A stretch of 64,000 bases of DNA. Source: Candidatus Omnitrophota bacterium (GTDB taxonomy: Bacteria; Omnitrophota; Gorgyraeia; Zapsychrales; Fredricksoniimonadaceae). The position numbers were made by a program, and so were the translations under genes. The DNA lies in assembly GCA_903860135.1 (NCBI GenBank), contig CAIOPG010000008.1:64127-128126 (forward strand). Direction: 5' to 3'. Under the pieces are notes generated by a model, which was given only the letters and a program-made list of their open reading frames with translations, was not told the origin of the DNA and made no database searches. Each line of letters starts with the position of its first letter. Within the stretch, counting starts at the first letter, position 1. Shown in pieces: positions 38,172-62,943 of this stretch.

Positions 38172-38885
38172 TCAAGCTGCCTTGCCCGTTACTCTTTTTA
38201 AAACTTCCTGGTACCCTTCCTTTATATTCCCAAGGTCATGGCGAAAACGATCTTTGTCAAGGCGCACCCCGGTGCCCACTTCCCAGAAACGGCACGTGTC
38301 CGGTGATATCTCGTCGGCAAGAATAACCTCGCCTTTGTGCCGGCCGAATTCGACCTTAAAATCGATCAACTCGATATTGAGCGCCAGAAAGAACTTCTTC
38401 ATCAGTTCATTGATCTTGAAGGTCAACTCCCTGATCGTGGCAATTTCAGATGCCGTGGCGATATCCAGCGCCAGGATGTGCGTCTCATTCATCAAAGGAT
38501 CATTGAACGCATCCTCTTTATAACAGAATTCAAGGACGGGCGCCGATAATGTCCGGCCTTCGGTCACACCATAGTTGCGGCACAAGGAACCTGCCGCACG
38601 GTTACGGATGATGACCTCGACCTTGACGATCTCGACTTTCTTGACCAGCATTTCCCGGTCGGATAGCTGTCGGACAAAATGCGTCGGAATGCCGTTCTGC
38701 CCCAGGTACTCAAACACCTTGGTCGAAATGGCATTGTTCATGATCCCTTTTTCATCGACCGTGCCTTTTTTCTTGGCATTGAACGCCGTCGCATCATCCT
38801 TGAAATACTGGATAACGCAATCCGGATTATCGGTCGCGTAAAGGATCTTGGCCTTGCCCTCGTAAAGTTTAGCGCGCTTTTCCAT
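38172..38885 (-). CDS. purC: SAICAR synthetase
   Basis: LYEGKAKILY motif. Confidence 0.9.
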   Translation of the reverse strand: MEKRAKLYEGKAKILYATDNPDCVIQYFKDDATAFNAKKKGTVDEKGIMNNAISTKVFEYLGQNGIPTHFVRQLSDREMLVKKVEIVKVEVIIRNRAAGSLCRNYGVTEGRTLSAPVLEFCYKEDAFNDPLMNETHILALDIATASEIATIRELTFKINELMKKFFLALNIELIDFKVEFGRHKGEVILADEISPDTCRFWEVGTGVRLDKDRFRHDLGNIKEGYQEVLKRVTGKAA

Positions 38886-45345: not shown

Positions 45346-46590
45346 TCAGAAATTTAACATCATCTCTTTTATATCCGCAGACGTTTTAGTCTCTGATAAT
45401 AACACGGAGCGACGGGCCATGTCGGTTCGTGCTGTGTCGACGTGTGCGGCGAGGGCGGCAATAAGTTCCTTGTAGGCCAACACGTCGGAACGGTCTGCCC
45501 TTGCGACCCTGCGGGCATACGTCAGCACTTGTTGCTTGTCACGCACGATCTGCCGGAATTCACTGGACAGGGCGGGATCAGCAAGGCAATAGTTCAGGTA
45601 TTCATCCGCCTGGAGGTAAAGCCCGTCCACTTCGGCAAAAGCCCCAGCATCGGCCAATTTCAGGATCATGATCCCCTGCGGCACATCAGCCAGCAGGTCG
45701 ACCCCGGCCAGGGTGCGCGCCGTAACAGGAACGCCAGACCATGATAATTCTTCCAAGGCTGCCGTTGTCCCCTTACCGGTGGCGCGGAACTTGGCCAGTG
45801 CCTCACGCCAGCGACGCGCCTTGACCTCCCTCGCTTCATTGAATGCCTGAACGAAGGTCTTGACCGGAAACACCTCTTTATAACTATCCTCGGAAAGCAC
45901 CCGATCACCGGTGATCCCAATGACCTGGTCAATGCGTCTTTGATCAAGTCCCAGGCGACCGAGCGCCTGCGCCACCACATGGATGCGCCGCCTCCCGTCG
46001 GACAATGATACGGTGCCGTCTAAACTGGCCAGCGCGTCAAAAGGCCGAACGGATTTCTGGCACACCCGCATGGCCTCGACCAACCCCAAGCCCTGATTGG
46101 CCTTGAGGCACTCCCGCTCCGACTGCCGGCTCAATCGCTCCGCCGGGCCTTCAGCGCCGCGTTCGATCTCGGACAGCCGCGCCGACTCCATGGCAAGCCG
46201 CTCGTAAGCGGCCATGCGGTAATGTTTAAGAACATCAGCGGTCACGGGGCTTGAGTATTCAAGTAATAGCAAAGGATGCCGGAGCGAAACATAACTCTGG
46301 TAATCCTTATCCTGCCGCAGGTTCTTGATTAAATATTTATCGAAGGCCGCGTCAAGGTCGCGCAAGGCACTCGGGCGTGTCATCCCCTCGACCGCAAGCG
46401 CTTTAACCTCGGACATCTTCTCCTGATGCCCGACCTGGTCGATGCCAGGCGTGCGAAAATAATAATCTGCCTGATCCTCTTTCAGGGCTTCGCGGAGCAC
46501 CGTATCCGCCGGACGGACACGTTCAAAAATATCGGCGTGCGCCAACGGCATGGCCGGCAGCATCAGCAAAAACAGGATCAAGCCTCTCAT
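45346..46590 (-). CDS. periplasmic T4SS accessory protein, TraH/PFL_4711-like (tentative); last gene of the T4SS/T4P operon
   Basis: Signal peptide MRGLILFLLMLPAMPLAHA. It follows traU as in F/G-type mating-pair-formation (MPF) systems. No direct motif was confirmed. Confidence 0.4.
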   Translation of the reverse strand: MRGLILFLLMLPAMPLAHADIFERVRPADTVLREALKEDQADYYFRTPGIDQVGHQEKMSEVKALAVEGMTRPSALRDLDAAFDKYLIKNLRQDKDYQSYVSLRHPLLLLEYSSPVTADVLKHYRMAAYERLAMESARLSEIERGAEGPAERLSRQSERECLKANQGLGLVEAMRVCQKSVRPFDALASLDGTVSLSDGRRRIHVVAQALGRLGLDQRRIDQVIGITGDRVLSEDSYKEVFPVKTFVQAFNEAREVKARRWREALAKFRATGKGTTAALEELSWSGVPVTARTLAGVDLLADVPQGIMILKLADAGAFAEVDGLYLQADEYLNYCLADPALSSEFRQIVRDKQQVLTYARRVARADRSDVLAYKELIAALAAHVDTARTDMARRSVLLSETKTSADIKEMMLNF

Positions 46591-46874
46591 TCCGGCAGCC
46601 TCTCCAGGATACGCTGAGCCGCGGCGATCTTCTTGAGACGTTCTTTCTGCCACGCGAGGTATTTCAGCGCTGTTGTTGCATTGGGGTCATCGAGAAAAGC
46701 CTCGACGACCGCTGGCGGCGCGAAACCTCTTTCCACCCATAAAGGATCCGGGAACGAAGGCTTAGCCTGGGCATTTTCTTTAACGGCAAAATATTCGATC
46801 CGGCCGATGCCGTAAAGATCCGCCGCGACCACCGACGGGAAGGCCGCACAGCCCACGATCAAAACAAGCAACAT
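46587..46874 (-). CDS. small periplasmic protein (TrbC/TraW-like position, tentative)
   Basis: Signal peptide MLLVLIVGCAAFPSVVAA; ATGA overlap with the downstream gene. Confidence 0.35.
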   Translation of the reverse strand: MLLVLIVGCAAFPSVVAADLYGIGRIEYFAVKENAQAKPSFPDPLWVERGFAPPAVVEAFLDDPNATTALKYLAWQKERLKKIAAAQRILERLPE

Positions 46875-47722
46875 TCTTTTTTTCGCCAGTAGATCCACAC
46901 AAACCTCCCGTCGCGTGCGTTCACGCCATTGTCCCATAAGGCCGGATCTGCCCCGACAGCCATGCAGCGCTGCTTGACCGGCGACACCATCTGCAAGCGG
47001 TCAAAACGGACATCCGGCCAGAAAAGCACCGGGGCTACAACCTGATGCGGTGTCTGAGGTTTTAGCGCCGCGATATCAACCGCCCTGAAAGCCGCCACCG
47101 CAGAAGCCGTGGCCGGGCTGGCGTGCACCACAAACCCGGTGCGCGGATAAAGCGGCCCCCAGACCCCCAGACATAACCCCGGGAATAAAGCACCGTAACG
47201 CGCACAGACAGGGGCGACCTTAGCGGTCATCTGCGCCAGGGGATGCTTCATCTCGTAACGCGCGCGCCGCCATTCATCCCTGTCCTGTTCACTGATATAA
47301 CTGATCGCACTCCCCAAATCCGGCAGACCTTCACACGGGGCTTCGACCATGAGTGAAAAGGTATCTGAAAAAGGAAACCCGAAAACATGGGCCTCGTTCA
47401 GGTGAAGATTGGTCGTATCGGCTTGTCCCGCGGCCCCGCACGCAGAGGCCTCTGCCCGCGAACCGGCCATAGCGGCCACAACAGACTTATATTCCATGAT
47501 GCCCGATACCCCGGAACGTCGGGTGGTTTCAACCAGCAAGACCGGCTGCCAGTAACGGACCTTGGCTCCTACAAAGGGCGGTGAATTCCTCCGGCAAACG
47601 CCGAGCACCTGGAACCTGACACACGGCCAGTCCGCCTGGGCTGCCAAAGCAACAAGGCTTTCATCGGCTGTCACCGGAACAACAGTAAAAGTCAAAAGGA
47701 TCAGGGCAATGATGGCTTGCAT
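46859..47722 (-). CDS. traU: conjugal transfer protein TraU family
   Basis: Signal peptide and conserved Cys residues. The C-terminus VWIYWRKKECCLF matches the F TraU C-terminus ...MWRKRNCVFL. Confidence 0.7.
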   Translation of the reverse strand: MQAIIALILLTFTVVPVTADESLVALAAQADWPCVRFQVLGVCRRNSPPFVGAKVRYWQPVLLVETTRRSGVSGIMEYKSVVAAMAGSRAEASACGAAGQADTTNLHLNEAHVFGFPFSDTFSLMVEAPCEGLPDLGSAISYISEQDRDEWRRARYEMKHPLAQMTAKVAPVCARYGALFPGLCLGVWGPLYPRTGFVVHASPATASAVAAFRAVDIAALKPQTPHQVVAPVLFWPDVRFDRLQMVSPVKQRCMAVGADPALWDNGVNARDGRFVWIYWRKKECCLF

Positions 47723-47723
47723 A

Positions 47724-48611
47724 TCACGACCTTATGATCCAGTACAACGCCATCGACGGCTGAACGTTGTTGTGCGCAAGGCCGCCCCCGGCTGCTGCTG
47801 TGACGCCCGCGCGCTGGGATGTGAGTAACGGGGAAGAACTCCCATCGTACCGACTGCCCGTCCAAGGTGATTCGTTATAGCCGTGCGTGTGCGCCGGCAT
47901 TTCGGCGATGGTCAACCGATGCGCTTCTTCACCGAAGATCCCGCCCAGCGAACGCCCCCGGGTATCGGTCATGACATTGGCCGCAGAGCCGCCCATATTA
48001 TCAAGCCCCACGACCGTGCGTCCGCGCAAATCAGGCAGATTGAACGTTGTTGACCCGTTGCCTGGACCATAGGTGGTGCCGATCACAGCGAACAATCCCG
48101 TATAATCCGCGCGCGCCACAGCGCGGCCGTCACAGATCAGCCAGCCTGAGGGCAGTGTCCCCGCAGGCCACGGCACGATCGTCCCGGCCGCTGCCAGTGA
48201 TTCCGTCCCCGGCGGTGTTACCTTGAGATTGACCCGTGTTCCGTTGATAACCGGCATCGGCAATAACACGGCTGTCGCTGACGCAAGGTCCGCCGGTAAA
48301 GTCGTGGTCAAATTTAGAAGCGCCCCCGCCTTCTGAACTTCATAAAGGTTCCCAAAAGGATTCCTGGTGCTCCAGGCTGTGTCTAGGAATCCGGCCGTAC
48401 GCAAAGCATCAAGGCTGTCAGGCCATTGTTGTTTTTCGATATAATACGCGCGCGCAACCTCGGCGATCTGGGACATCTCCATCGCCGTCTTTCTGGCCGC
48501 TTCCAAGCGCACCCCGCGGACAAAATCAGGGACGACCGCGCCGGCCAGGATCATGGCCATGGCCAGGGCCAGCGACAATTCGATCAAGGTGAAACTCCGT
48601 CTACGGTGCAT
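47724..48611 (-). CDS. minor pilin with class-III prepilin N-terminus fused to a phage tail-collar (MdpB-like) domain; candidate pilus-tip adhesin
   Basis: RRRSFTLIELSLALAMAMIL prepilin leader/helix. The C-terminus carries the LICDGRAVARADYTGLFAVIGTTYG...FNLPDLRGR...AHTHGY tail-collar signature. Confidence 0.6.
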   Translation of the reverse strand: MHRRRSFTLIELSLALAMAMILAGAVVPDFVRGVRLEAARKTAMEMSQIAEVARAYYIEKQQWPDSLDALRTAGFLDTAWSTRNPFGNLYEVQKAGALLNLTTTLPADLASATAVLLPMPVINGTRVNLKVTPPGTESLAAAGTIVPWPAGTLPSGWLICDGRAVARADYTGLFAVIGTTYGPGNGSTTFNLPDLRGRTVVGLDNMGGSAANVMTDTRGRSLGGIFGEEAHRLTIAEMPAHTHGYNESPWTGSRYDGSSSPLLTSQRAGVTAAAGGGLAHNNVQPSMALYWIIRS

Positions 48612-49050
48612 GCTTATTCCTTTGTTGGTATAATAACCGCGCCGCTTGGCCATGATCCTTTCCAATCGACAGACGGATCAGGTCCCAGGAGCCCCTGGAC
48701 TGAACCACAAACCCGTATCTCCCGGCGTCTGCTTTGGCCGTTCCGGCGGGAACCTCGGTTTCGATCCACAGGCGCCGCGCGTCTGAAGCAAAGGTGTACG
48801 CACGGCCCCAGCTATTATTTTCCGGCATCCTGGGAAGCACCCCATGGATCTCCTGCCACGCGGCAGGCCATACCCCCTGAAGGCTGGCGTATTGACGGCC
48901 AGCCTCAAGAAAAGCCGCCATATCATTGACCGTGCGCCGGGCACGGGCCATGGCCACCGGTTTACCGGCAGAACAGAGAACCCCGCCGGCCACGGCCACG
49001 AGCAAGACGCACGTCAACGACAATTCCAGCAAGCTGGCCGCGCGCTTCAT
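48601..49050 (-). CDS. minor (pseudo)pilin
   Basis: MKRAASLLELSLTCVLLVAVAGG is a prepilin-like N-terminal helix. Confidence 0.5.
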   Translation of the reverse strand: MKRAASLLELSLTCVLLVAVAGGVLCSAGKPVAMARARRTVNDMAAFLEAGRQYASLQGVWPAAWQEIHGVLPRMPENNSWGRAYTFASDARRLWIETEVPAGTAKADAGRYGFVVQSRGSWDLIRLSIGKDHGQAARLLYQQRNKHAP

Positions 49051-49496
49051 CAAAACGTGGCTTTCCATACCTTGCCTGCCTGGTCGTAATTAGTCGCTTC
49101 CGCTCGCGATAGAAACGTACTGGTCAATTCAGCACCCGCCGACGCAGGGACGCTGGCGAGCGCAATGTCCACCCGCGTATTATCCGCCGCGTTCGCCGCC
49201 ACGGTGTAATCACCGCCAAAGCTATTGGCAAGGGCAGGATCAAAGTTGTTGGGCAACAGGCCGGCAGTCTTGAGCGTCCCTACGCTAACGCCGGTATAGG
49301 TGAGATTCTGCCCCGAAAGATAATTCTGCGCAGCGATGCGCAAACTGTCGACCGCCTGCGCCTCCCGCTGAAGGCGGCATTTATTCATCATCCCGCCACC
49401 GGCGGCCACAACGCTCACAAGGACACCCATGAGCCCTATGGCTATCGCCAGTTCCATCAAAGAAAATCCCCGGTTATAACGTGCGTTCCTCTTCAT
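49050..49496 (-). CDS. major type IV pilin (class III signal peptide)
   Basis: MKRNARYNRGFSLMELAIAIGLMGVLVSVVA has a G|FSLMEL cleavage/methylation motif. The start was moved; the track ORF is 64 aa too long. Confidence 0.7.
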   Translation of the reverse strand: MKRNARYNRGFSLMELAIAIGLMGVLVSVVAAGGGMMNKCRLQREAQAVDSLRIAAQNYLSGQNLTYTGVSVGTLKTAGLLPNNFDPALANSFGGDYTVAANAADNTRVDIALASVPASAGAELTSTFLSRAEATNYDQAGKVWKATF

Positions 49497-50572: not shown

Positions 50573-52197
50573 CGCACCACCCGCGCAGCCTCTTCGGGCG
50601 CGATGACCCCTTCGCGCACAAGCCGGCAGGCATCGGCGTGCATGGTGATCACGCCGGGCCTGGCCCTGACTTTCAAGAAGATCTCGTTGACCAGCCCCTG
50701 CTCGATCATGAAACGTATTTCATCATCGATGAACAAGGTTTCCGCCACCACGGTCCGCCCCCGATAACCGTCAAAACACCAGGGGCATCCCCGCGGATCC
50801 GCCCGATGAATGATCTGCCCCGGCCCGTTGACAAAAGCCTGTTCCGCCTCGCCGAGGAGCAGCGGCGTCACAAATTCCTCGATCCGGCAATGCGGACAAA
50901 GCTTGCGCACCAGCCGCTGGGCGACAACACACTTCAGGGTGCTGGCGATATAACTGTTATCCACTCCCAGGTCACGCAGGCGCAAGATGGCACTTACGGC
51001 ATCACGGGTATGCAGTGTTGAAAAGACCTTGTGCCCCGTGATCGCCGCACGCACGGCTTCTTTGGCCGTCTTTTCATCGCGGATCTCGCCGATCAGGATG
51101 ATATCCGGGTCATGCCGCAGAAAGGCCCGTGCCAACTGATGGAAATCATGCCCTTTACGGATATCGACCGGCACCTGGGTCACCAGCGGCAATTTGATCT
51201 CAACCGGATCTTCCGCCGCCACAACCTTGATCCCGACAGCCTTGACATGATTGAGCATGGCATAAAGGCTGGTGGTCTTGCCACAACCGGTAGGCCCGGT
51301 CAAGAGCACGATACCGCCGGGGCTTTTAACCGCACGCTCAATGACACGGCAATGCCCCGGGGCATAACCCAGGCTTTCCAGGGGCACGGCCGAGCGTGTT
51401 TTATCGAGAAGCCTCAGTACGAGCGAGGCCCCGTTGACCGACGGTATGTGCGAAAGCCGGATATCCATCCGGCGGTTGCCGCACACATGATCAAAGCGCG
51501 CGTCATGCAGTTTCATGAAATCGCCCGCGCTGATCTCGGCACGATTAAAGAATATGTTCACGATCCGTGCATGATCCCCGCGCGCGAAAGAACGGTGAAA
51601 GCGCAGGACCCCGTCGAGACGCAAGCGCACTTCGACCGAGTCTCCCGAAGGTTCGATGTGGATATCCGTTGCGCCCAGATCGATCGCTTCTTCCAGAAGG
51701 CTGTCCGCGGCATCCTGGACACCGCGTGTGCCGGCCTCAACAGCCCCTTGCTGCGCCTTCACGAAATGGGCCGCCCCCGCCGCAATGGTATCGCTATTGC
51801 CAATAAAGAACCGCACCTCCGAACCGAACACCGACACCACCTGATCCGTTGCCCGGGTATCATACGGGTCCGCAAGGACAAAAACGGTCCCCGCCGTATC
51901 GGTGCAAGGTAAAACCAGATGCTCCTGCATGAAAGCCCCGCCCAACCGGCTCGCCGCCGCTTGATCGAGGCACGCCGCACCTTCATAAACCGGCCAGCCT
52001 GATTGCTCGGACAATCCGGCCATCAGGTCTTCCTCACGCACAAGCGCATACTGACGCAAGATGTTCCCGAGGCGTTCGCGCCCCGCTGAAGACGCCTGCA
52101 CCCCAAGGCCCAACGCCACATCGCCCGACGTCAGGGCGCCCCGCCTTACCAGCAATGCTCCCAAGGGTTCGGGTTTCATCCGTCGTGCCGTTATCAT
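50569..52197 (-). CDS. type II/IV secretion system ATPase (GspE/PilB/PilQ-R64 family)
   Basis: Walker A LLTGPTGCGKTTSLYAML, a tetracysteine motif (CPHC...CPWC), and a GspE N-domain. Confidence 0.85.
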   Translation of the reverse strand: MITARRMKPEPLGALLVRRGALTSGDVALGLGVQASSAGRERLGNILRQYALVREEDLMAGLSEQSGWPVYEGAACLDQAAASRLGGAFMQEHLVLPCTDTAGTVFVLADPYDTRATDQVVSVFGSEVRFFIGNSDTIAAGAAHFVKAQQGAVEAGTRGVQDAADSLLEEAIDLGATDIHIEPSGDSVEVRLRLDGVLRFHRSFARGDHARIVNIFFNRAEISAGDFMKLHDARFDHVCGNRRMDIRLSHIPSVNGASLVLRLLDKTRSAVPLESLGYAPGHCRVIERAVKSPGGIVLLTGPTGCGKTTSLYAMLNHVKAVGIKVVAAEDPVEIKLPLVTQVPVDIRKGHDFHQLARAFLRHDPDIILIGEIRDEKTAKEAVRAAITGHKVFSTLHTRDAVSAILRLRDLGVDNSYIASTLKCVVAQRLVRKLCPHCRIEEFVTPLLLGEAEQAFVNGPGQIIHRADPRGCPWCFDGYRGRTVVAETLFIDDEIRFMIEQGLVNEIFLKVRARPGVITMHADACRLVREGVIAPEEAARVVR

Positions 52198-52655
52198 CGG
52201 ACCTCCAGCAAGCTTTCATGCCCGTCTTGCGTCACCATGGTGATCTCCGTCGCGGATATTTTCTTGATGATCCTGTCCGCGCAACGATCGCCTTCTTGCC
52301 AACGCTTGAGCACGCCGTCCACATCCACCACCGCTTCCTTGCGCGTCCCGGTGATGGCTATATAACGCACATGAATATTGGGCTCCGTTCCGGCTTGTTC
52401 GTGCGGCTTTCGGGTTTCCCCGCCGCCTGAAAGCCCGGCGAGTTCGAGTGAAACTTTTTTGCGCTCAAGTTCAAGCTTCAAGCGCTCCACATCCAGATGC
52501 AGTAACTGCAGTTCTTCCTCCCTGGCGCGCTCCGTGTCAACACGCCCCCGCATCTTTTCGAGCGTTGCCGTCCCGTCGTCAACAGCCGGTCCGGCCGCCA
52601 GTGCCGCGCTGGCGAACATGAAGATCAAGCAAATGCTCCCCACCTGTTTTTTCAT
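52194..52655 (-). CDS. pilus assembly protein, PilP-like periplasmic beta-domain protein
   Basis: Signal peptide MKKQVGSICLIFMFASAALA, a coiled-coil, and a C-terminal beta domain. Confidence 0.45.
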   Translation of the reverse strand: MKKQVGSICLIFMFASAALAAGPAVDDGTATLEKMRGRVDTERAREEELQLLHLDVERLKLELERKKVSLELAGLSGGGETRKPHEQAGTEPNIHVRYIAITGTRKEAVVDVDGVLKRWQEGDRCADRIIKKISATEITMVTQDGHESLLEVR

Positions 52656-53161
52656 GATGCCCCCTCCTGAAGTCCAACAATAATAACTTCCATCTCGAGC
52701 GTATCTTTTGTTCCCTTTATACGACGGATCACCGCCGTCCCCTTCTCTTCTATCCCTGAGAAAGCCCTCAGCATCGAAAAGAAGGCACTCCGGCTCTGTA
52801 GCCCCGTGCAATGCACATTTAGCGGCAGTTGCTGCACCCCCGCCCAGGGAGAAGCTTCCACCGCGCGGCGCATATCCCCTTGAACCATGCCCGGGACGAT
52901 CACCGTGCAGGCCGTATGCTCCGAGCGCCCGATTACATAAATGTCATTGATAAACCCGGCGTACGCCTCTTTAAAAATATCTTTCGGGGGTGTGCGCTCC
53001 AGCACGGCACAAGCTTTAAGCTCCTCGTTCAGACGGCGTGTCTCGTGCAGCGTTTGGGCCAGTGCCACGTTCTTTCTGGCCGCACGATCCCGAGCGGCAT
53101 AGCCTGTCACTAAGCCCGCAACCAGCAACAGGCTTCCGGCAAAGATCACCAGCAGCCTCAT
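52652..53161 (-). CDS. pilus assembly protein, PilO-like (TM + periplasmic domain)
   Basis: N-terminal TM MRLLVIFAGSLLLVAGLVTGY; ATGA overlaps on both sides. Confidence 0.45.
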   Translation of the reverse strand: MRLLVIFAGSLLLVAGLVTGYAARDRAARKNVALAQTLHETRRLNEELKACAVLERTPPKDIFKEAYAGFINDIYVIGRSEHTACTVIVPGMVQGDMRRAVEASPWAGVQQLPLNVHCTGLQSRSAFFSMLRAFSGIEEKGTAVIRRIKGTKDTLEMEVIIVGLQEGAS

Positions 53162-54231
53162 GGTGCTCTCCTTTCTTCGGCCGGGCAGGTAGAAAATACA
53201 GCACGGATCTTCAACCCCGGCTTATCCTCTATCACAATAGCCTCGCTGACAGCTTCCGTAAAAAGCCCATGGCCTGAAAAAGGGAAAACCTGTTTTTGTT
53301 CAAACACAAGCTCACCTGTGAAGATCCACCCGTCGCTCTGCCCGCGTTCAAACGTAACTGAACTGACCCGGCTCTCCAAAGGCAAGCCCTCCATAAACTG
53401 ACGGGACACATCAAAAAAATCAACGCGCGGCCATTGCCTGAGGCGCGCCTGATAGGTCACGATCGACACCTCTTTCAAGGCCGGCACACCACCGGCTCTT
53501 TGATCAGTAGCCTCCTGTGCCGCCGTGTCAACCGCCTGTTCAGACATGACCGCGCTCCAGCCATACCCGATACCGGCCAAGGCCATCAGCAACGCCATCG
53601 CCCCTGCACCCAACAAGCCCCGCCGGTCTGCCTGCCGCTGCCTTGCGGCCGCATCTTCCGGTGCCATCAAATGCACCGCGAACCTGACCGTACCCAACAC
53701 CTCAAAAGCCGGGAATAATGTTTCAAAGAAAACTACATTTTCTTTATCTTCCGCGCTCAACACCTCGATCACGGCGGCGTCATTGCCCAGCAAGCAGCAG
53801 GCCGCCGTCGGCAGCCCTTCGATCAAATTCTTGCGGGAACGCCGCACTTCCTCGGCGATCCGCTCCGCGTTCTGTGGCAGGAGCACCCGTGTTTCCACGG
53901 CCTCACGCGTGTTATAGGCCGTGAGCAAATACCTGTCGCCGATGTTGTCAATCACGATCATGGGCTGTTCGGCCGGGACCAAATTCTGCCCCCAAAGATA
54001 AGCCCGCAACGCCAGGCTGTACGGCACAAATGTCCTGATCCCGCCGCGCGGGAAAGCCCGGCTGATACGCCGGATCATGGCCGGCTGATCCTCCGTCGAC
54101 AGCACCAGCAGGACATGCGCCTCCTTATCTGCAACATGCGCAGAAGCCATAAAATCATCAACCGTCATGCAGGTCGGGTCATCCCCGCAGGCAAAGTAAA
54201 CATTCCCGTTCTGAAAAAGATAGCGTCCCAT
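53158..54231 (-). CDS. pilus assembly protein, GspL/PilM-PilN-like (cytoplasmic domain + TM + periplasmic domain)
   Basis: 357 aa with a central TM GLLGAGAMALLMALAGIGYGW. It follows the secretin, in the position of R64 PilO. Confidence 0.45.
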   Translation of the reverse strand: MGRYLFQNGNVYFACGDDPTCMTVDDFMASAHVADKEAHVLLVLSTEDQPAMIRRISRAFPRGGIRTFVPYSLALRAYLWGQNLVPAEQPMIVIDNIGDRYLLTAYNTREAVETRVLLPQNAERIAEEVRRSRKNLIEGLPTAACCLLGNDAAVIEVLSAEDKENVVFFETLFPAFEVLGTVRFAVHLMAPEDAAARQRQADRRGLLGAGAMALLMALAGIGYGWSAVMSEQAVDTAAQEATDQRAGGVPALKEVSIVTYQARLRQWPRVDFFDVSRQFMEGLPLESRVSSVTFERGQSDGWIFTGELVFEQKQVFPFSGHGLFTEAVSEAIVIEDKPGLKIRAVFSTCPAEERRAP

Positions 54232-54233
54232 AT

Positions 54234-55814
54234 TTAACCTTGGTGCGGGGTCATGAAAATGACCAGTTCTGTCCGCCGGTTTCGGCGAACCTCATAGGAA
54301 AACAATCTGCCCAATACAGGCAGGCGGCACAGGAAAGGCACCCCCTGCTGTTCCTTCCGCTTGTCGCGCGTGATAAGCCCGCCGATGGCTACCGTCTGCC
54401 CGTCTTTCACCCGCACCTGCGTGGTCATGGTCTTGATGGACGTGTCGGGCGCCTCCAGCCGGCTCCCGCCGCCGAGCGTGATCGTGCGGATATCATCAAT
54501 GCTGGTCACGACCGGCGTCACCCCCAGGAACACATCCTCGCCGGCAATACTGCCGACGATCTGGAGCGTCACGCCGCCATGGACTTCATTCAAGGCCGCC
54601 GACGTGATCGTACCCCCGTTCTGTGTGGTTTCCACGTTACTGCTCTCCACATACGATCGGGTTTCCCCGACCTGAATACTGGCCACCGCGTTATTGAGCA
54701 TCATGAGGCGCGGCTGAGACACCACCTCGATCTGCCCGAATGATTCCAGCGCTTTTAAGACGGCCTTGATCCCCGATGCGGTATCACCCGCCCCGCTTCG
54801 GCCGGCGCTGGCCGCCAGGGTCATCACATTGCCGGTGGCCATATTCCCGGAGGCAAAGTTCGTCGACGCCCGCAGGCCTTTTAAACTGCCCCCGGCCATC
54901 AGGGCACCCCAATCGATCCCCAGCTTATGCTCCCTGGAAAGTTCCACCTCGACGACCTTGACATCCACCATGATCTGACGCGCCGCCCGGGCATTGATAT
55001 CCTTGAGAAAAGTTTCCAGCGTTTCCAGCCGTCGCGGCGTATCCGTGACCACGATCACACCGGCCGCCTTGTTAACCGAAACAAGCCCGTCCTTGGAAAC
55101 AAGATTCCTCACACCCGCTTCAACATCACTCCAGTAGGAAAGTGCCTCGGCCTTGTTGTGGATAACAACCCTGGCTCCCACGCGCACATGACTGCGCCCG
55201 GCGGTGCCCGCCCCTGCATTACCTTCCTCGCCGGCACTTGAACTTTCATTGGTCGTGGCTGTATCAAAAGCCTGCGCCACCGGTGGTAGGTCGATGCGGA
55301 AAGACTGCGTATCACGGGCCAGGATAACAAGCTCTCCCCCGTTGACCTTATACCCGTATTCGAGCGGAACCAGGATGGCCCTTAACGCGCGCGCCAGCGG
55401 GGCTTGGCTAATATTCAGCGTCAATTCAGTGTCCACGACACCCGGCCCCAGGACAACCTGCTTTCCGGCGGCTTCGGCGATGATCTTCAAAGCTTCAAAC
55501 AGTTTCACCTGCCCTGCCAGCGTGATCAGCCGCGGTGCTCCGCCTTTAAACACCACGGTGCCGGTGCCCGTTGCAACAGCCTGCACAGGCATGACCAGCG
55601 GCTGAGCCGGTGCCCTCACCCAGGCCCCAGGCCTTAGGATCACCAGCTCATCACGGGCAGGATAATAAACACCGTCAGTGATCCCCGCCGGGACCCGCAC
55701 CTCTGAAACCAGAGGCTCCACCCACTGGTCGCTGGCTTGCGTCGCTGCCGCCCAGCCGCCTGACAGGCACCACAACCATAACCCTGCCCACACAATATTG
55801 GTCCGCATGATCAT
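54234..55814 (-). CDS. secretin (GspD/PilQ/PilN-R64 family)
   Basis: Signal peptide and STN-like N-domain. The secretin core IMVDVKVVEVELS...LGIDW and the C-terminal GVPFLCRLPVLGRLFSYEVRRNRRTELVIFMTP are present. Confidence 0.85.
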   Translation of the reverse strand: MIMRTNIVWAGLWLWCLSGGWAAATQASDQWVEPLVSEVRVPAGITDGVYYPARDELVILRPGAWVRAPAQPLVMPVQAVATGTGTVVFKGGAPRLITLAGQVKLFEALKIIAEAAGKQVVLGPGVVDTELTLNISQAPLARALRAILVPLEYGYKVNGGELVILARDTQSFRIDLPPVAQAFDTATTNESSSAGEEGNAGAGTAGRSHVRVGARVVIHNKAEALSYWSDVEAGVRNLVSKDGLVSVNKAAGVIVVTDTPRRLETLETFLKDINARAARQIMVDVKVVEVELSREHKLGIDWGALMAGGSLKGLRASTNFASGNMATGNVMTLAASAGRSGAGDTASGIKAVLKALESFGQIEVVSQPRLMMLNNAVASIQVGETRSYVESSNVETTQNGGTITSAALNEVHGGVTLQIVGSIAGEDVFLGVTPVVTSIDDIRTITLGGGSRLEAPDTSIKTMTTQVRVKDGQTVAIGGLITRDKRKEQQGVPFLCRLPVLGRLFSYEVRRNRRTELVIFMTPHQG

Positions 55815-55843
55815 GCCCTCTCCTTGATGTTCTTCCGCATCCT

Positions 55844-58291
55844 TCAGCGCACACCGCCGGGATATTTTGCCGCACAAACCCTGAGGGCTTCCAATAGGTC
55901 ACCCCCGGCCTTTTCCTTTTCCGCATCTAATAGCGCATTGTCGCGCGGCTCTGACGTGGCCGCCCAATAAAGCAGAGGGTCAGGCACCAGCCGGATAACC
56001 CCTGTCGAAGAAGGCGTCATCACCAAAGCCTCGGCATACCGCCCTTTGACCGTGCGGACCGACCGCAGCAAACCTGCCGCCTCGTCGGCGAGAGACAATT
56101 CTCTTTTTAAATGTTCGATCAGCGCAACTTCCTGCTTCAAAAAGATCTTGTTGGCTGTATTGGCCAGGATCGCCAGCCCGCTCTTTTGTTGCAGGAAGTC
56201 AGCAACCTCCTGGGTAACCGCCACTGCCGCACAGCGGTATTTGCGGAATGTCTTGAAGGCATTGGCAATAAAATCACCGGTGCTGGCGAGCTTTAATAAC
56301 TGCCACGCTTCATCGATCAGCATGAACTTCCTCTTGCCGCGGATGCGCGGATCACCCACAAACTGCGTCACAAAGAACATGATATTAAGGAGCACCACCA
56401 GCTGAAGGTCCGGGTAAGCACTCAGATTCGCCAGTTCAAACACCGTGAAACGGCTGTTCACTGTAAACTGATTCTGCCCGTCGAAGAATTTCCCGTACGG
56501 CCCTTTCCGGGTGAACGGTGCCAGCCTGAGCGCCAAACGAGGCCCCATTGCACTCACATCCTCGAGCGTCGCGTTGTTCAACACGCCGGCGACATCGGTC
56601 AATGTCACCTCACGGCCTTTCACCGTCCTGTACGCTTCAAGCACTGCCTGCTGGAGAAAGCCTTTCTCCTCGCGCGTCAGGCGGTCGCGTTCATCGCCGC
56701 CCGAAGCCATGAAACCCAGCACTTCGACAAGGAAAGCCAGATTTTCGCTGTCAGGAGCACACAGGAACGGATTGATCGTCAGCGGCGCCCGCAGGTCAAA
56801 ATCAAGGTACTGCCCGCCGAGGATGGCGCAGGTCTTGCGGTAAGAATGCCCTTTGTCGAGCACAAAGAAATGCGCGCCCAAACGGTAATTCTGATAAATA
56901 AAATCATTGATCAGGAATGACTTCCCGGCCCCCGAAGCCCCGATCACCAGCCCGTGAGGATTTGTTTCCGAATCAAAAAGATCCAGCCATACCGGCTCGC
57001 CCCGGCGGTTCATGTAAAGCCCCGCCGGTGTGGCTGTACCGCGGCAGGCGCCGTAAAAGGGCAGCATATCCGCGAAATTATCTGAGAGAATGCGGCGTTC
57101 CCGGCGCACAAAACACTCGTTGCGGTGGTCGAAATTTAGCGGCAGGCATGTCAGGTAGATCGACGGAGCAATGATCTCTTCTTTCAAGCCTTCGGCCCCC
57201 ATCCGGTGCAGAGCGGCCAGCAGTGTGTCGCACACCCCTTCAAGGGCAGGCAAAGCCTCGCCCCACACCACGAGATGCCAGCGCGCCTGCACGATCACCT
57301 TGCCGCTCTTAAAGGTCTGCGTGATAAGCCCGCTCAGTTCCTCTTTCTTTTGCACCGCCTCCTCGCTCACATCACCCATCGACGACGTCCGCTGCATAAA
57401 CGCCAGGGCCTTCTGAAATTTGAGCCGCGACAGGGCCGACTGCTGATCGGGCACCGTGAAATTGACAACGACCATCATGTCCCTGTGACTGTCACATAAG
57501 CCTTCGCGGGTTGATAACATCCCCGCCCATGTCGCCGGCGGTAATTCCTTCAGGCTCAACACCCGGGTGTGATAACCGTCAAAGATAAAGCCGTTGCCAT
57601 GCACGTCCGGTGCCCCGTACAAAACCTGTTCTCTCAAAAAGTCTTGTCCCAGCCGTGGCGGCGGAATTCTGAGCGCACGGCGAGGGTTCAACAGCCGGTA
57701 AACAAGCGCACACAAACCCGCTCCGTCGATTTCAACCCACGGGATCCGCATGGCCTGCAGTTGGCTTTCGATGACGGCACAAAATCGAAGAAAATCACCG
57801 CGCACTTTGTCTTGCGTCCGGGCATCGTGCGCCGCGCCTTGAGACACCGGAAAAGACCGTACAGTCAAAAACAGCCGCATCCGCCTGGGGAACAGTTCTT
57901 CCCCGGCCTGCCGGAAAAACCCTTCCCGGCTGTCTTCCATATGCTGCACTTTCCCGTCGATGATCATCGCTGTGGCCTTATCCGCTCCGGCCGGCGTCAT
58001 GGCCTGGTACGGACCGGTCAGCGGCGTAATATCGCTGTCCGATACGAGGATGGCCTGCGCGCTGATCCCCGGTAACATACGCCCGACAAGCCCCCCGAGC
58101 ATATGCACAAATTCATCCAGCTGTGCCGCCCCTACAGCCTCGGATTCATAAAGGGATAGTTCCCACACGCGCCCGATACTGCCGTCCACATGAAGAAATA
58201 TCCCGCCAGCGTATTCCGCGTACGGCAAATGATCAACGAGCGATTTCCCTTCATCGAACAAAGCCTGTATCCCTGACACGGTCAACATCAC
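55844..58291 (-). CDS. traC: conjugative transfer ATPase TraC/VirB4 family
   Basis: 815 aa with Walker A VIGASGAGKSFLINDFI and a Walker B-like FMLIDEAW. Confidence 0.8.
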   Translation of the reverse strand: MMLTVSGIQALFDEGKSLVDHLPYAEYAGGIFLHVDGSIGRVWELSLYESEAVGAAQLDEFVHMLGGLVGRMLPGISAQAILVSDSDITPLTGPYQAMTPAGADKATAMIIDGKVQHMEDSREGFFRQAGEELFPRRMRLFLTVRSFPVSQGAAHDARTQDKVRGDFLRFCAVIESQLQAMRIPWVEIDGAGLCALVYRLLNPRRALRIPPPRLGQDFLREQVLYGAPDVHGNGFIFDGYHTRVLSLKELPPATWAGMLSTREGLCDSHRDMMVVVNFTVPDQQSALSRLKFQKALAFMQRTSSMGDVSEEAVQKKEELSGLITQTFKSGKVIVQARWHLVVWGEALPALEGVCDTLLAALHRMGAEGLKEEIIAPSIYLTCLPLNFDHRNECFVRRERRILSDNFADMLPFYGACRGTATPAGLYMNRRGEPVWLDLFDSETNPHGLVIGASGAGKSFLINDFIYQNYRLGAHFFVLDKGHSYRKTCAILGGQYLDFDLRAPLTINPFLCAPDSENLAFLVEVLGFMASGGDERDRLTREEKGFLQQAVLEAYRTVKGREVTLTDVAGVLNNATLEDVSAMGPRLALRLAPFTRKGPYGKFFDGQNQFTVNSRFTVFELANLSAYPDLQLVVLLNIMFFVTQFVGDPRIRGKRKFMLIDEAWQLLKLASTGDFIANAFKTFRKYRCAAVAVTQEVADFLQQKSGLAILANTANKIFLKQEVALIEHLKRELSLADEAAGLLRSVRTVKGRYAEALVMTPSSTGVIRLVPDPLLYWAATSEPRDNALLDAEKEKAGGDLLEALRVCAAKYPGGVR

Positions 58292-58680
58292 GGCTCCTTT
58301 ACCGGTAAGACCGGAACGATCGCTCGTCCGTCGGTGCTTTCCCCCGCAGGCCGCTCGATATACCAGTGCGGCTCATCGACCATGAGAAACGTCCAATGCC
58401 CGGCGACCATGGCGTCGCGGCCGTGGCCGCTCACATGCGCCGGGATCCATACTTTCCGGATGCGCGGGGGTTCATAGATCGGCCAATACGGTCGCACCAC
58501 GCCAGCCTCAGGCAAAAGCTCCACCCTGCCCGTAGCACCACCCTCGGCAGTGCCGCACGAATGGTGATAGATCTGTGCCAGCGTACGCGGCGCCTCCCCT
58601 TGCGCCGGGACTGCCTGACGGCCCGCGCAACCGCTAATCAGCGTAACGCACAGGCATAACAGCACTCTTCTTGAGCCCAT
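58288..58680 (-). CDS. T4SS lipoprotein (TraV/TIGR03751-like position)
   Basis: Lipobox LCLCVTLISGC. It lies immediately upstream of traC, as TraV does in F-like systems. Confidence 0.5.
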   Translation of the reverse strand: MGSRRVLLCLCVTLISGCAGRQAVPAQGEAPRTLAQIYHHSCGTAEGGATGRVELLPEAGVVRPYWPIYEPPRIRKVWIPAHVSGHGRDAMVAGHWTFLMVDEPHWYIERPAGESTDGRAIVPVLPVKEP

Positions 58681-59806
58681 AAACCGCCGTCCCTTCGAGT
58701 ACAATGAAATAAACGCCGACCCCGGCCTCAACCTTGACCGCCGGGACAATATTCCCCAGCTGATCCTCGTAATACTTGGACATTTGCGCCGCGCTCTGCG
58801 CCAACCCCTGAAACCCGGCATTCTTTGTGCGGCTCCCGGTCACATTCCTTGTCATATGCCCGTTATCGCCCATGACCGTTGTTGTCTGGGCGTCGGCCAT
58901 GGCCTGCGCAGCCCCGCCGGTAAATCCGGTCATGAACGACATCGCCAACTGCCGGCCGGCGTTATAAACGACCTCGCCTTTCAAGCCCAACTGGCCGGAA
59001 ACATCTGTCAGATACCCGATATTCCCTTTGTGCTCAAAAGTCTCACCTTGCGGGAACACCGCCGACACCGTCGTGATCTGGACAAGCGCCCGTTCGCTCA
59101 CAAGATCCCCCGACGCCTTGCCTGCCGCCAGGGCACCTTCGAGCGGTATGCGCGACCCGTTGGGGCCATAAAAAGCTTCCTTAAGGCGGATCAAGACCGG
59201 CAAGGGATTGGCATTGCCTGACGGCGCATAAACCCCCGTCAGCAATGTCCCGCTCACAAAACTGCCGGCGGGCAAATACACCCGGTCTCTGTCGTTCTCG
59301 CGCGCAACAGGGGCCGCGATATTGATCACATCCATCTGATACCGCCGCATATCCGGCTGTTGCACCATAGCCCCGGCGGGGGATGACACCTCCGCCTTGT
59401 TGCTCACCGCCTCGGCCATGCGCCCGGCAAGGCTCGCGAAACTCTCGGACAACCGCCCCTGGCCCTTGGACAGCTCACTCACTTTCCCGGCAAGATCGTC
59501 GATCCGCCCCTGCAAAAGCTGATCTTTCTCTGCGGCAGAAAAATATTGCGCCTCAAGCCGCTGCACATACGCCTTCTTGTCAATGTCCTCCCCCAGGAAA
59601 TACCCGCCCTCGTCCTTCTTCACCTCTTGCGGCGACGCCAATGGCTTCACCGGGCCATCGCCGGGCACTGGTTCTTTGGGCAGAAACAGCCAGCACGCCG
59701 CGATCAGCAAGCCTCCGGCCGCGCACAGTGCCGTCAAGCGCCCGCGCGTGTCCAGTGCCTGAAATTTTTCCTGCCACGACCGGATCAACGCCTGAATATT
59801 ATTCAT
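58634..59806 (-). CDS. traB: TraB/VirB10 family protein
   Basis: N-terminal TM, a coiled-coil, and a C-terminal beta-barrel region (RVYLPAGSFVSGTLLTGV). Confidence 0.6.
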   Translation of the reverse strand: MNNIQALIRSWQEKFQALDTRGRLTALCAAGGLLIAACWLFLPKEPVPGDGPVKPLASPQEVKKDEGGYFLGEDIDKKAYVQRLEAQYFSAAEKDQLLQGRIDDLAGKVSELSKGQGRLSESFASLAGRMAEAVSNKAEVSSPAGAMVQQPDMRRYQMDVINIAAPVARENDRDRVYLPAGSFVSGTLLTGVYAPSGNANPLPVLIRLKEAFYGPNGSRIPLEGALAAGKASGDLVSERALVQITTVSAVFPQGETFEHKGNIGYLTDVSGQLGLKGEVVYNAGRQLAMSFMTGFTGGAAQAMADAQTTTVMGDNGHMTRNVTGSRTKNAGFQGLAQSAAQMSKYYEDQLGNIVPAVKVEAGVGVYFIVLEGTAVYGLKKSAVMPVRYAD

Positions 59807-60468
59807 CGCCGGACCACCATATAAATCCGCCCTTTCATCCGCGGGCCAAGCGTATCTTCCTCTGCCGCCACCGCCAGCAGGCCGGGATACGTTATCCGCT
59901 GCAACGGCAGTATGACCGGCGCATCCGTCACATTCTCAGCGGCGAGCACATACCCGGCGACCATGGGCCATTCATCGCTCCATAAAAGAACCAGCCTGAG
60001 CTGGGCATCCTCAAAAACCACCTGCCCGCCGTTGTGCCGCACAACCCCCTCCGGCTGACGCTCCTGCATCAAGGCCCGCATGGCCGCCATGACCGGATCC
60101 GTTCCCGCCGCTGGCCCTGCCGGCACGCGGCAATCCGCGATCGTCACCTTGTCATCGACCCCCTCACCAAAAACATACCTGACCCGGTGCGAACGCCCAT
60201 TGCTATCGAGGATGGTGATGCCCGCCGGCGCGGCTGTAAGCGGCGTCAGAAAAAGATGCCCCGCCGCGTGCTCCACCTTCACCGTTGCCGGATCACCCCA
60301 GCGCACAAGATCGGATATCCCATCCTCCATATAAATATCGACCATCTTGCCGACCTCCACCCGCACCGCTGTATCAGCCCCGGCGCAGATACGTTTTTCC
60401 GCCGCCGCGCCGCCCACCCCGCCGAGCAGGATCAGCCCTGCCACCAGACAATGCTCAACTCGGATCAT
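59803..60468 (-). CDS. traK: TraK/VirB9-like protein
   Basis: Signal peptide MIRVEHCLVAGLILLGGVGGAAA; placed between the TraE-like and TraB-like genes. The start was moved. Confidence 0.5.
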   Translation of the reverse strand: MIRVEHCLVAGLILLGGVGGAAAEKRICAGADTAVRVEVGKMVDIYMEDGISDLVRWGDPATVKVEHAAGHLFLTPLTAAPAGITILDSNGRSHRVRYVFGEGVDDKVTIADCRVPAGPAAGTDPVMAAMRALMQERQPEGVVRHNGGQVVFEDAQLRLVLLWSDEWPMVAGYVLAAENVTDAPVILPLQRITYPGLLAVAAEEDTLGPRMKGRIYMVVRR

Positions 60469-61078
60469 GGCTGGCCTTCTCTTTCCTGACATCCTCGACC
60501 GCAAGCCCGTAAGGATTGCGCGTCGTTGGCGTGATCCGCCGGACAGCCACCGTGAAACGCACGGCTTCACCTGACATTTCTTCCTTGCCCATGTAGATCC
60601 GGCGCTCGCCCTCAAAAACAACCGTAAAACCCACCGCTTGCGCCTCACACTGCGGCACGCCTTTCAGCGTGAATACCGACGACAATCTGTCGCGGGCGAT
60701 CTTTTCAAGCTCGGCCTTCAACCCCGCCTGGATCCTGGCCGTGAACCCGGGCATGACCAGGGTGAGCGCCCGCTGATAAACGCTTTCGGCGGTGTCGGGG
60801 GTATAATTCATCCAGTCCAGGATCCAGGCCGCCGTGAAACTGCTCACCGACGGCAAAGGCACCTGTCCCGGGTAGGATAGTCCCGCCGCGGGCATGGCCG
60901 GAATATAATGAATAGGCTTGGGGCGCAGGGCTGTCATCACCAGGGCCGCCGCCAGCACCACACTGACCAACCCCAAAACAAAAACAGCCCCTGCCAGCAC
61001 CGCGCGCTGTTGTTCCGCCTGGGCGTAGCGTTCAAAATACAGGGAACTTTTGGATCTCACCGCCTTCTCCTGACTCAT
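60455..61078 (-). CDS. traE: TraE/VirB8-like bitopic protein
   Basis: N-terminal TM VLAGAVFVLGLVSVVLAAALVM followed by a periplasmic domain; F-type gene order. Confidence 0.5.
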   Translation of the reverse strand: MSQEKAVRSKSSLYFERYAQAEQQRAVLAGAVFVLGLVSVVLAAALVMTALRPKPIHYIPAMPAAGLSYPGQVPLPSVSSFTAAWILDWMNYTPDTAESVYQRALTLVMPGFTARIQAGLKAELEKIARDRLSSVFTLKGVPQCEAQAVGFTVVFEGERRIYMGKEEMSGEAVRFTVAVRRITPTTRNPYGLAVEDVRKEKASHDPS

Positions 61079-61368
61079 GCCGCCTCCTTAAGGAATGCCC
61101 CGTAACGTTCTCCGTGCGCAGGTACCGGCGGCAAAAGTCCAGGCAGTGGTACGCCTGCCCGGTACAAGGCATGCGCCACATACCCTTCTGGCTTGCCCCG
61201 CTTGAAGGCGACGAGCGCCGGCCAGACCGCAAAGATCAGGATCAACGGGATCGCCGGAGAGATCAGGATCGCCGGCACCCCGAACAAGAGCATCAGCACC
61301 GCGATATCCTCCCCTTCGAGCCCGAGGATCAGCAAAGGCTTGTCAATGGTCTTGGGGCAATGCCGCAT
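61075..61368 (-). CDS. traL: TraL/VirB3-like small membrane protein
   Basis: 97 aa; LILGLEGEDIAVLMLLFGV resembles the TraL family. Confidence 0.5.
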   Translation of the reverse strand: MRHCPKTIDKPLLILGLEGEDIAVLMLLFGVPAILISPAIPLILIFAVWPALVAFKRGKPEGYVAHALYRAGVPLPGLLPPVPAHGERYGAFLKEAA

Positions 61369-61371
61369 CTG

Positions 61372-61686
61372 TCACCGCCCGAACACGTTTAAGATCTGCG
61401 GTAAAAAAACCAGGGCCAGCAAGGCGATCACACACCCCACCGCCGTGCCATAATCCCGGTTGATGATCTTCCATATACCGACGAGAAGCAGTACCAGCGC
61501 GATGATCTTGGCCACCGGCCCGGTCATGACCGTCACGATGAATTTCGACAGGTTGTCAAACTGTTGCTTTGTTTCATCTTCGATCCCGGATGCCTGGGCC
61601 CATGCCCGGGTGACCACCCCCATCACAACCACCGCCCCCGCACTCACGCGTAACAAGATCCGCTCCCCGACTTTGATATACCTCAT
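61372..61686 (-). CDS. conjugative pilin (TraA/VirB2/PFL_4701-like)
   Basis: About 104 aa: a signal-like segment plus two hydrophobic helices (KIIALVLLLVGIW, VGCVIALLALVFL). The track ORF is over-extended upstream in a Gly-rich out-of-context frame. Confidence 0.45.
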   Translation of the reverse strand: MRYIKVGERILLRVSAGAVVVMGVVTRAWAQASGIEDETKQQFDNLSKFIVTVMTGPVAKIIALVLLLVGIWKIINRDYGTAVGCVIALLALVFLPQILNVFGR

Positions 61687-62906: not shown

Positions 62907-62943
62907 AACCCCTCTCTCCACGTGTACGCCCATCAACCAGAGA

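Follow-up and report, generated by a model that had tools for sequence, protein, structure and literature searches.

A probable modular minor pilin with a phage tail-fibre receptor-binding module, encoded in an F-type secretion operon of Omnitrophota

A single gene of a Candidatus Omnitrophota bacterium may bear on how the uncultured bacteria of the phylum Omnitrophota find and hold their partner cells. The gene lies at 47724..48611, on the minus strand, of the stretch of DNA analysed here (contig CAIOPG010000008.1, positions 64,127 to 128,126), which is called the window and measures 64,000 nucleotides (nt). It encodes 295 amino acids (aa) and a stop, and its coding sequence is defined by the open reading frame (ORF), by Pfam matches to Collar and N_methyl and by 30 full-length orthologs. 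An earlier note on this DNA had seen in its product a minor pilin that carries a phage tail-collar domain. The results described below make it very likely that the protein, called here the tip pilin, is a minor pilin of modular build that carries a tail-fibre receptor-binding module. A fuller model, that of a trimeric pilus-tip adhesin which sets target-cell specificity, is probable at a lower level of confidence; in it we infer the processing, the tip position, the trimer and the ligand.

The N-terminal half of the tip pilin, aa 1-136, has the make-up of a type IV prepilin (this and all further features of the protein and of its gene cluster lie on the minus strand). A predicted class III leader, MHRRRS (aa 1-6, 48594..48611), would be cleaved before Phe7 and followed by the predicted mature N-terminus FTLIELSLALAMAMILAGAVV. 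The short basic leader, the hydrophobic stretch and the Glu at +5 are the class III features, and in the ortholog alignment Gly, Ala or Ser at -1 is followed by F-[TS]-L-[IL]-E. The pilin module proper (aa 7-136, 48204..48593) is composed of a hydrophobic alpha-1 helix and a four-stranded sheet, as indicated by AlphaFold2, by Foldseek and by the relatives retrieved with phmmer, and carries the conserved motif WP...L...GFLD..W...NPFG..Y. Its Glu at +5 (E11) is invariant in 31 sequences, namely the window protein and its 30 orthologs, and Pfam N_methyl (PF07963) matches aa 1-26 just above the cut-off (21.4 bits versus 21.2). With the alignment of these 31 sequences, AlphaFold2 models aa 4-136 at a predicted local distance difference test score (pLDDT) of ~90, as an unbroken helix (aa 9-60) and a four-stranded sheet. 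The best PDB matches of this half in Foldseek are C. difficile PilA1, the gonococcal pilin and T. thermophilus PilA4 (probability 0.99-1.0, E ~4e-3 to 2e-2), and the profile of the 31 orthologs finds PilE, PilA, GspG and geopilin at the N-terminus among PDB sequences (1e-5 to 1e-3). Because the Glu at +5 is invariant, the modelled fold is that of a pilin and the PDB matches are pilins, the N-terminus is a prepilin helix rather than a Sec signal, in agreement with the prepilin leader and hydrophobic helix that the earlier note had recognised.

The earlier note stated no strand for 47724-48611. The plus-strand reading contains many stops and was rejected, and the motifs listed in that note, SFTLIELSLALAMAMIL, DYTGLFAVIGTTYG, FNLPDLRGR, THGY and NNVQP, are all present in the minus-strand translation. 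The ATG at 48611 lies inside the 3' end of the preceding minor-pilin gene, with an overlap of 11 nt that recurs in orthologous loci, and a Shine-Dalgarno sequence, AAAGGA (48618..48623), can be read from the sequence 6 nt 5' of it. An alternative TTG start at 48665, which would give 313 aa, was rejected, since it is the ATG that has the Shine-Dalgarno sequence and a short leader like that of the orthologs. A scan of 44.9-50 kb for promoters and terminators gave no decisive signal.

The C-terminal half resembles a phage tail fibre. A receptor-binding module of 159 aa (aa 137-295, 47727..48203), which comprises a collar and a gp12-type head, is delimited by AlphaFold2, Foldseek and tblastn, and the models place the boundary between the two separately folding modules of the tip pilin at ~aa 136-142. 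This build fits that of a modular pilin in the sense of Raynaud et al. (2021), the second module not being peculiar to pilus biology. The Pfam Collar domain proper (PF07484; aa 143-200, 48012..48185) is matched over profile positions 1-57 of 57 (E=3.5e-25, 88.2 bits against a cut-off of 24), which bears out the tail-collar assignment made earlier, and Gp10_C gives a weak match to aa 197-294 (E=0.0029). Among PDB sequences, the profile of the 31 orthologs matches phage tail fibres in this half (8KEC, 6e-13; T4 gp12, 1PDI/1OCY, ~1e-8). The combination of pilin and tail-collar features thus goes far beyond what chance would give. When aa 137-295 were modelled alone, with 102 collar-family sequences, the mean pLDDT was 83.5, with values >90 for aa 137-231 and of 59-73 in aa 244-274. 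All seven PDB matches found by Foldseek at E<=0.001 are phage fibres. The receptor-binding domain of T4 gp12 (1OCY) comes first (E=7.8e-6, template modelling score 0.45), and further matches are cyanophage A-1(L) 8KEC, baseplate gp12 5IV5, 1PDI, Pseudomonas phage Pa223 9NXK and the gp37 needle tip 2XGF; the next match is a bacterial collar protein, 6OV6 (E=3.4e-3). Identity to the phage fibres in the fold alignments is 22-26%. With tblastn, the module matches 611 phage records, 194 of which, annotated as minor tail protein, cover at least 80% of it at 41-45% identity.

The head of this module carries an HxH motif, H241-T-H243 (47883..47891), whose histidines do not vary among the 31 orthologs or among the 102 collar proteins. 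In the hidden Markov model alignment to 1PDI/1OCY, they line up with the H-K-H of gp12, that is, with His445 and His447, which in each chain of T4 gp12 hold a Zn ion on the threefold axis (PMC3004832). T4 gp12, counted among the best PDB matches in both sequence and fold, likewise combines a collar with an HxH-bearing head, which in gp12 is knitted, trimeric and metal-binding. It differs in its long beta-helical shaft to the baseplate, whereas the window module is joined to the pilin helix by a linker of ~6-10 residues. The conserved C-terminal segment, AGG..HNNxQPSMALYWII (aa 275-295, 47727..47789), ends in a last strand that rejoins the collar sheet in the model.

The 30 orthologs, the named ones being from Candidatus Omnitrophota metagenome-assembled genomes (MAGs), show 42-69% identity, measure 295-341 aa and retain both halves. 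Their most conserved stretch is the collar core, aa 161-205 (mean pairwise identity 0.69), followed by the C-terminal segment aa 275-295 (0.63) and the pilin helix (~0.56). Only the segment directly after the HxH motif, aa 244-274 (47790..47882), is hypervariable, with a mean pairwise identity of 0.19, an entropy of 2.5 bits and many indels. Variation among related genomes, which the earlier note had considered worth looking for, is found here, and the alignment makes this segment a candidate receptor-contact region. One ortholog (L010:9980-10903) retains the pilin module, the collar core, the HxH motif and the last strand, and has a different and longer head segment, which looks like the replacement of a head domain between related genomes. 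In a scan of GTDB genomes, only four loci (L007-L010) were full-length; the other 76 retained loci were matched mainly in the collar half, and none of them reaches the N-terminal pilin helix. No plasmid-borne pilin-collar fusion was found among the 84 plasmid records that match, none of which has at least 80% coverage and nearly all of which match in the collar half only.

The pilin module belongs to a wider family. A phmmer search with aa 1-140 among 1.84 billion cluster representatives retrieved 381 relatives at E<=1e-3, 95 of them at E<=1e-10; the top relatives mostly match the whole module, and their total lengths are 80-1833 aa. In a Pfam survey of the best 150 of the 381, N_methyl was found in 112, Collar in 18, Gp10_C in five, Peptidase_S74 in three, Shufflon_N in two and YadA_head in one. 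The three Peptidase_S74 relatives (P0173, P0195 and P0264) are fibres of 1190-1445 aa on a pilin module, in one case with YadA-head repeats. Another relative, P0163 (1195 aa, L087:8001-11588), is without a recognisable C-terminal domain. Its pilus cluster lacks TraU, and its gene stands at the same position, with a pilin gene and a small pilin-like gene ahead of it. The relatives thus make up a modular family of tip pilins, and this position in the locus is a cassette site, where a single pilin scaffold is fitted with different modules. The grafted modules that can be recognised are ones that occur as obligate trimers in phage fibres and in trimeric autotransporters. A closely related collar/head module (49% identity) also stands at the end of a 595-aa non-pilin protein of an Omnitrophota MAG (L011:8669-10456), which might, within the phylum, have served as a donor pool for the fusion to the pilin.

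The tip pilin is encoded among pilus genes that are nested in a secretion operon, in which the genes from 62936 to 45346, all of them on the minus strand, adjoin or overlap one another. The upstream F-type type IV secretion system (T4SS) genes (55844..62936, identified with Pfam and NCBIfam) encode, in this order, a 417-aa polytopic membrane protein, a VirB2/TrbC-like pilin (61372-61995), TraL, TraE, TraK, TraB, TraV and TraC/VirB4. The best NCBIfam matches of the Tra proteins are F-type, and an exact look-up gave no identical record for the 417-aa protein. A secretin (54234-55877) comes next, with three unannotated genes (357 aa, 169 aa and ~150-205 aa) in the pilO/pilP positions; the region as a whole (52194..55877), assigned from NCBIfam and conservation, is also kept in L010, L088 and the contig of P0002. 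Within NCBIfam, the secretin is matched best by MshL (7.5e-66), PilN reaching 2.3e-41 and GspD also coming after MshL, all of them below curated cut-offs. The assembly ATPase of the GspE/PilB family (50569-52197) and the platform protein of the GspF/PilC family (49511-50572), both identified with Pfam, have GspE and GspF as their best-scoring families.

The major pilin that follows (148 aa, 49050..49496, ATG at 49496) has the canonical N-terminus RG/FSLMELA, matches Pfam N_methyl and PilS (the latter at 1.4e-05) and was aligned with its orthologs and with R64 PilS. Next comes a second minor pilin-like gene (155 aa, 48601..49068), with a degenerate class III N-terminus in an alignment of five orthologs, the one in L005 having a canonical G/FSLLE; its product and the tip-pilin module share the motif WP...N.WG..Y. 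The tip pilin stands directly after these two, where it had been placed before, and 2 nt past its stop begins a TraU homologue (46859..47722; Pfam TraU, 1.2e-29). The operon ends (45346..46937) with genes for proteins of 116 aa (46587-46937) and 435 aa (45346-46653), whose window copies are without a Pfam match. An ortholog of the 435-aa protein (L005:7556-8809) matches Pfam TraH at 6e-07, and the protein is probably a divergent TraH. In this F-type T4SS operon, traC and traU thus enclose a full type IV pilus (T4P) gene set, from secretin to tip pilin, and no earlier description of such an F-type T4SS/T4P hybrid was found in the literature.

A cassette of major pilin, small minor pilin, tip pilin, TraU and a ~110-aa gene, usually with a TraH-like gene, is kept in eight independent loci, all from Omnitrophota (L001, L002, L004, L005, L008, L009, L010 and L088; at ~10000 in each, except for ~3700 in L005 and ~8000 in L088). 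Together with the overlapping or abutting genes on one strand, this argues for operon linkage. All the orthologous loci that were examined have TraU next to or nearly next to the tip pilin. The ATPase and platform genes stand before the cassette in some loci and after it in others, and TraC and the secretin are directly upstream in some only. Because the cassette persists where TraC and the secretin are not adjacent, the gene order suggests a functional tie of TraU and the TraH-like protein to the pilins. In several loci, the cassette is followed by the window's own housekeeping flank (TatA/C, HemN, DUF1318, polyprenyl synthase, DUF2059 and PurB), whose gene order is shared by several species. 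Such a pattern is that of a chromosomal system inherited vertically and not of a recently acquired plasmid or integrative and conjugative element. The PurB proteins of the window (38885-40180) and of L004 (19473-20765) are 92% identical, whereas the syntenic neighbour proteins are only ~50-60% identical, which reflects either unusually strong conservation or recent exchange.

The tip pilin is not new in kind, as modular pilins are known and a PilV-tail collar fusion was published in 2023. This fusion, with a shufflon PilV, was reported from Pectobacterium brasiliense (UCP91044.1, CP084655.1), and it was proposed that the phage tail domain had been repurposed for partner or recipient specificity (Milman et al., 2023; PMC9881135). 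Like the tip pilin, it is a minor type IV pilin with a PF07484 tail-collar domain whose gene lies among pilus genes. However, it has the PilV constant region (PF04917) and ~525 aa, is shufflon-diversified and is gammaproteobacterial, whereas the window protein is without a PF04917 match or inverted-repeat cassettes, measures 295 aa, and is encoded on an Omnitrophota chromosome, where it is tied to TraU and an F-type T4SS. The catalogue of Raynaud et al. (2021; PMC8179133) holds 264 modular-pilin architectures, including pilin-Peptidase_S74 (29 proteins); pilin-Shufflon_N-Collar (IPR012902-IPR007001-IPR011083) occurs in it once, as does a pilin-FN3-Collar x3 architecture, and the simple pilin-Collar architecture is not in it. 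The S. sanguinis modular pilins (PilB with vWA, PilC with lectin) are alike in that a pilin module at the N-terminus is joined through a short linker to an additional module, and they differ in their monoderm type IVa pili and in their other effector modules. What is new here is a non-PilV, shufflon-free, chromosomal Omnitrophota family that is coupled to TraU and a TraH-like protein in an F-type T4SS cluster. No paper that combines 'tail collar' with 'minor pilin' was found in the searchable literature, and the literature on Omnitrophota covers type IVa pili, Tad and type II secretion systems (T2SS) and does not mention the window cluster.

The earlier note had further compared the position of the gene with that of R64 PilV; the parallel in gene order holds, whereas homology does not follow from it. 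In R64 (IncI1), PilV is likewise the last pilin gene of an operon of secretin, ATPase, platform and major pilin that accompanies a conjugative T4SS, and the window order of secretin, 357-aa gene, 169-aa gene, ATPase, platform, major pilin and minor pilin(s) parallels pilN-O-P-Q-R-S...V. The variable C-terminus of PilV selects the lipopolysaccharide of the recipient in the R64 thin pilus, according to work cited in PMC9881135. The two proteins also have a weak common N-terminal motif, L..GFL...[FW]...N..G. R64, on the other hand, has an I-type (Dot/Icm-like) T4SS, long leaders, an Rci shufflon and an adjacent prepilin peptidase and transglycosylase, all absent at the window locus, where a search of 45-50 kb for inverted repeats gave only short chance-level pairs, 71-93% complementary, and no shufflon. 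The hhalign comparison of the ortholog profile with R64 PilV is weak (E=0.009, probability 4.5%, 82 columns). With no Pfam match, this weak alignment and no shufflon, membership in the PilV family was rejected; on the profile comparison, a distant relationship to PilV is possible but unproven.

CofB of the CFA/III pili of enterotoxigenic Escherichia coli and TcpB of the toxin-coregulated pili of V. cholerae are also large minor pilins, in which a linker joins a pilin module to beta-rich C-terminal domains. These domains (a beta-repeat and a lectin-like sandwich) are unrelated to the collar module, and no sequence similarity to the window protein was detected. At the pilus tip, CofB assembles into a homotrimer, and it mediates attachment via CofJ (PMC8179133; PMC10191384). 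It sets a structural precedent for a tip of threefold symmetry, to which a trimeric fibre head, such as the window protein may form, would be suited. As to the type of the pilus, the genes are clustered, there are only two minor pilins and the major pilin matches PilS, yet the leaders are type IVa-like, being short and with Phe at +1. Mannose-sensitive haemagglutinin and type IVb pili have been reported only in Proteobacteria (PMC10191384). Because of the short leaders, the Phe at +1 and the best match of the secretin to MshL, the Omnitrophota pilus appears not to be a clean IncI-type type IVb pilus, and the system may represent a separate type IV filament lineage.

In the fuller model, a prepilin peptidase encoded elsewhere would cleave the tip pilin after its six-residue leader, before Phe7, and the filament would begin with three copies, much as CFA/III pili begin with CofB. 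Their C-terminal modules would knit into a gp12-like homotrimer, with a metal held by H241 and H243 on the threefold axis, and this collar-head trimer would cap the pilus tip. The trimer and the metal are suggested by the invariant HxH motif and its alignment to the Zn ligands of gp12, by the obligate-trimer modules that relatives carry and by the tip trimer of CofB. At the tip, aa 244-274 would contact a surface glycan or protein on another cell, and the pilus would in this way select and hold a partner cell. Such a role in specificity is suggested by the conserved collar core next to a hypervariable segment, by the swapped head of the L010 ortholog and by the 1195-aa fibre at the same position. 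The purpose might be contact for T4SS-mediated transfer, in functional analogy to the R64 thin pilus and PilV, or else the episymbiotic or predatory attachment to host or prey that has been proposed for Omnitrophota. These bacteria are described as ultra-small, host-dependent and rich in pili (PMC10066038). A bolder version can be offered tentatively, with more doubt than confidence. According to it, a T4P has been genetically fused into an F-type T4SS that is without an obvious relaxase or coupling protein, and its tip is a cassette position for exchangeable trimeric phage-fibre modules, with a gp12-like collar and head in the window protein and S74-chaperoned or YadA-like fibres in its relatives. 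The system would be vertically inherited and chromosomal, the tip pilin would be a determinant of host or prey range in an episymbiont or predator and not an accessory of conjugation, and TraU and the TraH-like protein would have been co-opted into pilus function.

Several observations weigh against the tip-adhesin model. AlphaFold2 models the C-terminal half at pLDDT <50 in the full-length monomer (31 sequences), so that a model of the whole protein, as the earlier note had envisaged, is confident for the pilin half, and the collar half gains its confidence when modelled alone. The nearest collar-only homologues are bacterial 'MdpB-like' proteins of unassigned function, and receptor binding is therefore extrapolated from phage proteins. 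Collar-pilins, the P. brasiliense fusion included, are known from sequence analysis alone, and the window protein has no match to the PilV family (PF04917, Shufflon_N) at E<=0.01. No prepilin peptidase (Peptidase_A24) was found among the scanned ORFs of the window, and it is presumably encoded elsewhere in the genome. The cluster is likewise without a retraction ATPase. No relaxase, coupling protein (T4CP), integrase or recombinase was found in the window, although such genes may lie elsewhere in the genome, and since the window has neither of the first two, conjugation is an unproven role for the adjoining T4SS. Cleavage raises a further point. At -1, 19 of 30 family members have Gly and 10 have Ala; the window protein is the one with Ser (codon AGT, one transition from GGT), which makes the efficiency of its cleavage as a prepilin uncertain. 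Bacterial prepilins nearly always have Gly at this position. Nothing directly relevant on Ser at -1 in bacterial prepilins was found in the literature; in archaellins, Gly at this position is critical for cleavage (PMC4307647). The protein could accordingly be poorly processed or unprocessed in the window genome and represent a membrane-anchored surface protein or a decaying gene. This is improbable, however, as the ORF is intact with all family-invariant residues present in the alignment of 31 sequences, the identical protein was found on five contigs (P0001), and the frequent Ala at -1 suggests that the cognate peptidase tolerates small residues.

It could also be argued that the tip pilin is a minor pilin that primes assembly, and that its collar is only a trimerisation clamp and not a receptor-binding adhesin. 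Type IVb-like systems use one or two minor pilins to initiate assembly, in replacement of the four-pilin complex (PMC10191384). Moreover, the most conserved part is the collar core and not the head, and the HxH motif is a structural feature of the trimer. A pure clamp, however, leaves unexplained the indel-rich hypervariable segment, the head swapping between close relatives and the long fibre modules at the same locus, while priming and adhesion are compatible, as CofB does both; the clamp alone is thus an unlikely explanation. Marginally less likely again is a T2SS-like or short-pseudopilus machine coupled to the F-type T4SS, with a collar pseudopilin at a periplasmic or short piston tip, or in a T4SS envelope complex with TraU and TraH. 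It would account for an ATPase and a platform closest to GspE and GspF, for a secretin that matches MshL and then GspD, for the lack of a retraction ATPase and for the invariable adjacency to TraU and the TraH-like protein, which are periplasmic T4SS components, also in loci where neither TraC nor the secretin adjoins. Yet the major pilin resembles PilS and has the usual size of a pilin, genes for secreted substrates are not evident in the operon, and the periplasm is hardly a sensible place for a receptor-binding tail-fibre head that has a hypervariable segment. The NCBI annotation of orthologs as 'tail fiber protein' and the similarity of the module to phage minor tail proteins might, finally, point to a prophage or phage-remnant tail-fibre gene with a pilin-like N-terminus by chance. 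This candidate was rejected and is effectively refuted by the gene context and the N-terminal fold: no phage genes were found near the tip pilin, whose neighbours are pilus and T4SS genes, the pilin fold is confidently modelled with its invariant Glu, and the synteny with pilins extends over eight loci with shared chromosomal flanks.

The family adds evidence that pilus tips and phage tail fibres draw on one pool of trimeric recognition modules, in keeping with the threefold tip known from minor pilins of type IVb. That the tip pilin is so closely linked to TraU and a TraH-like protein, within an F-type T4SS that is chromosomal and shows no DNA-processing genes, hints at an undescribed pilus-T4SS hybrid. 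The tip pilin is a candidate determinant of host recognition; its 159-aa receptor-binding head is small, soluble-looking and experimentally tractable, and could be used as a probe for the partner cell or glycan.

Outside the cluster, the window encodes housekeeping proteins (DnaK, DnaJ, HrcA, ClpB, HflX, MiaA, SHMT, PurL, PurQ, PurB, HemN and polyprenyl synthase), and no tRNA was found in it. Between housekeeping genes, a stretch of low G+C content (0.42-0.49) contains an ORF of 1260 aa (6239-10021, minus strand) without a Pfam match. At the outer end of the T4SS cluster, where the G+C content falls to 0.50, lies an AT-rich ORF of 279 aa (63125-63964, minus strand), also without a Pfam match, the product of which has a 20-residue N-terminal repeat, ILKHSLENERNINNINATIY, in two copies.

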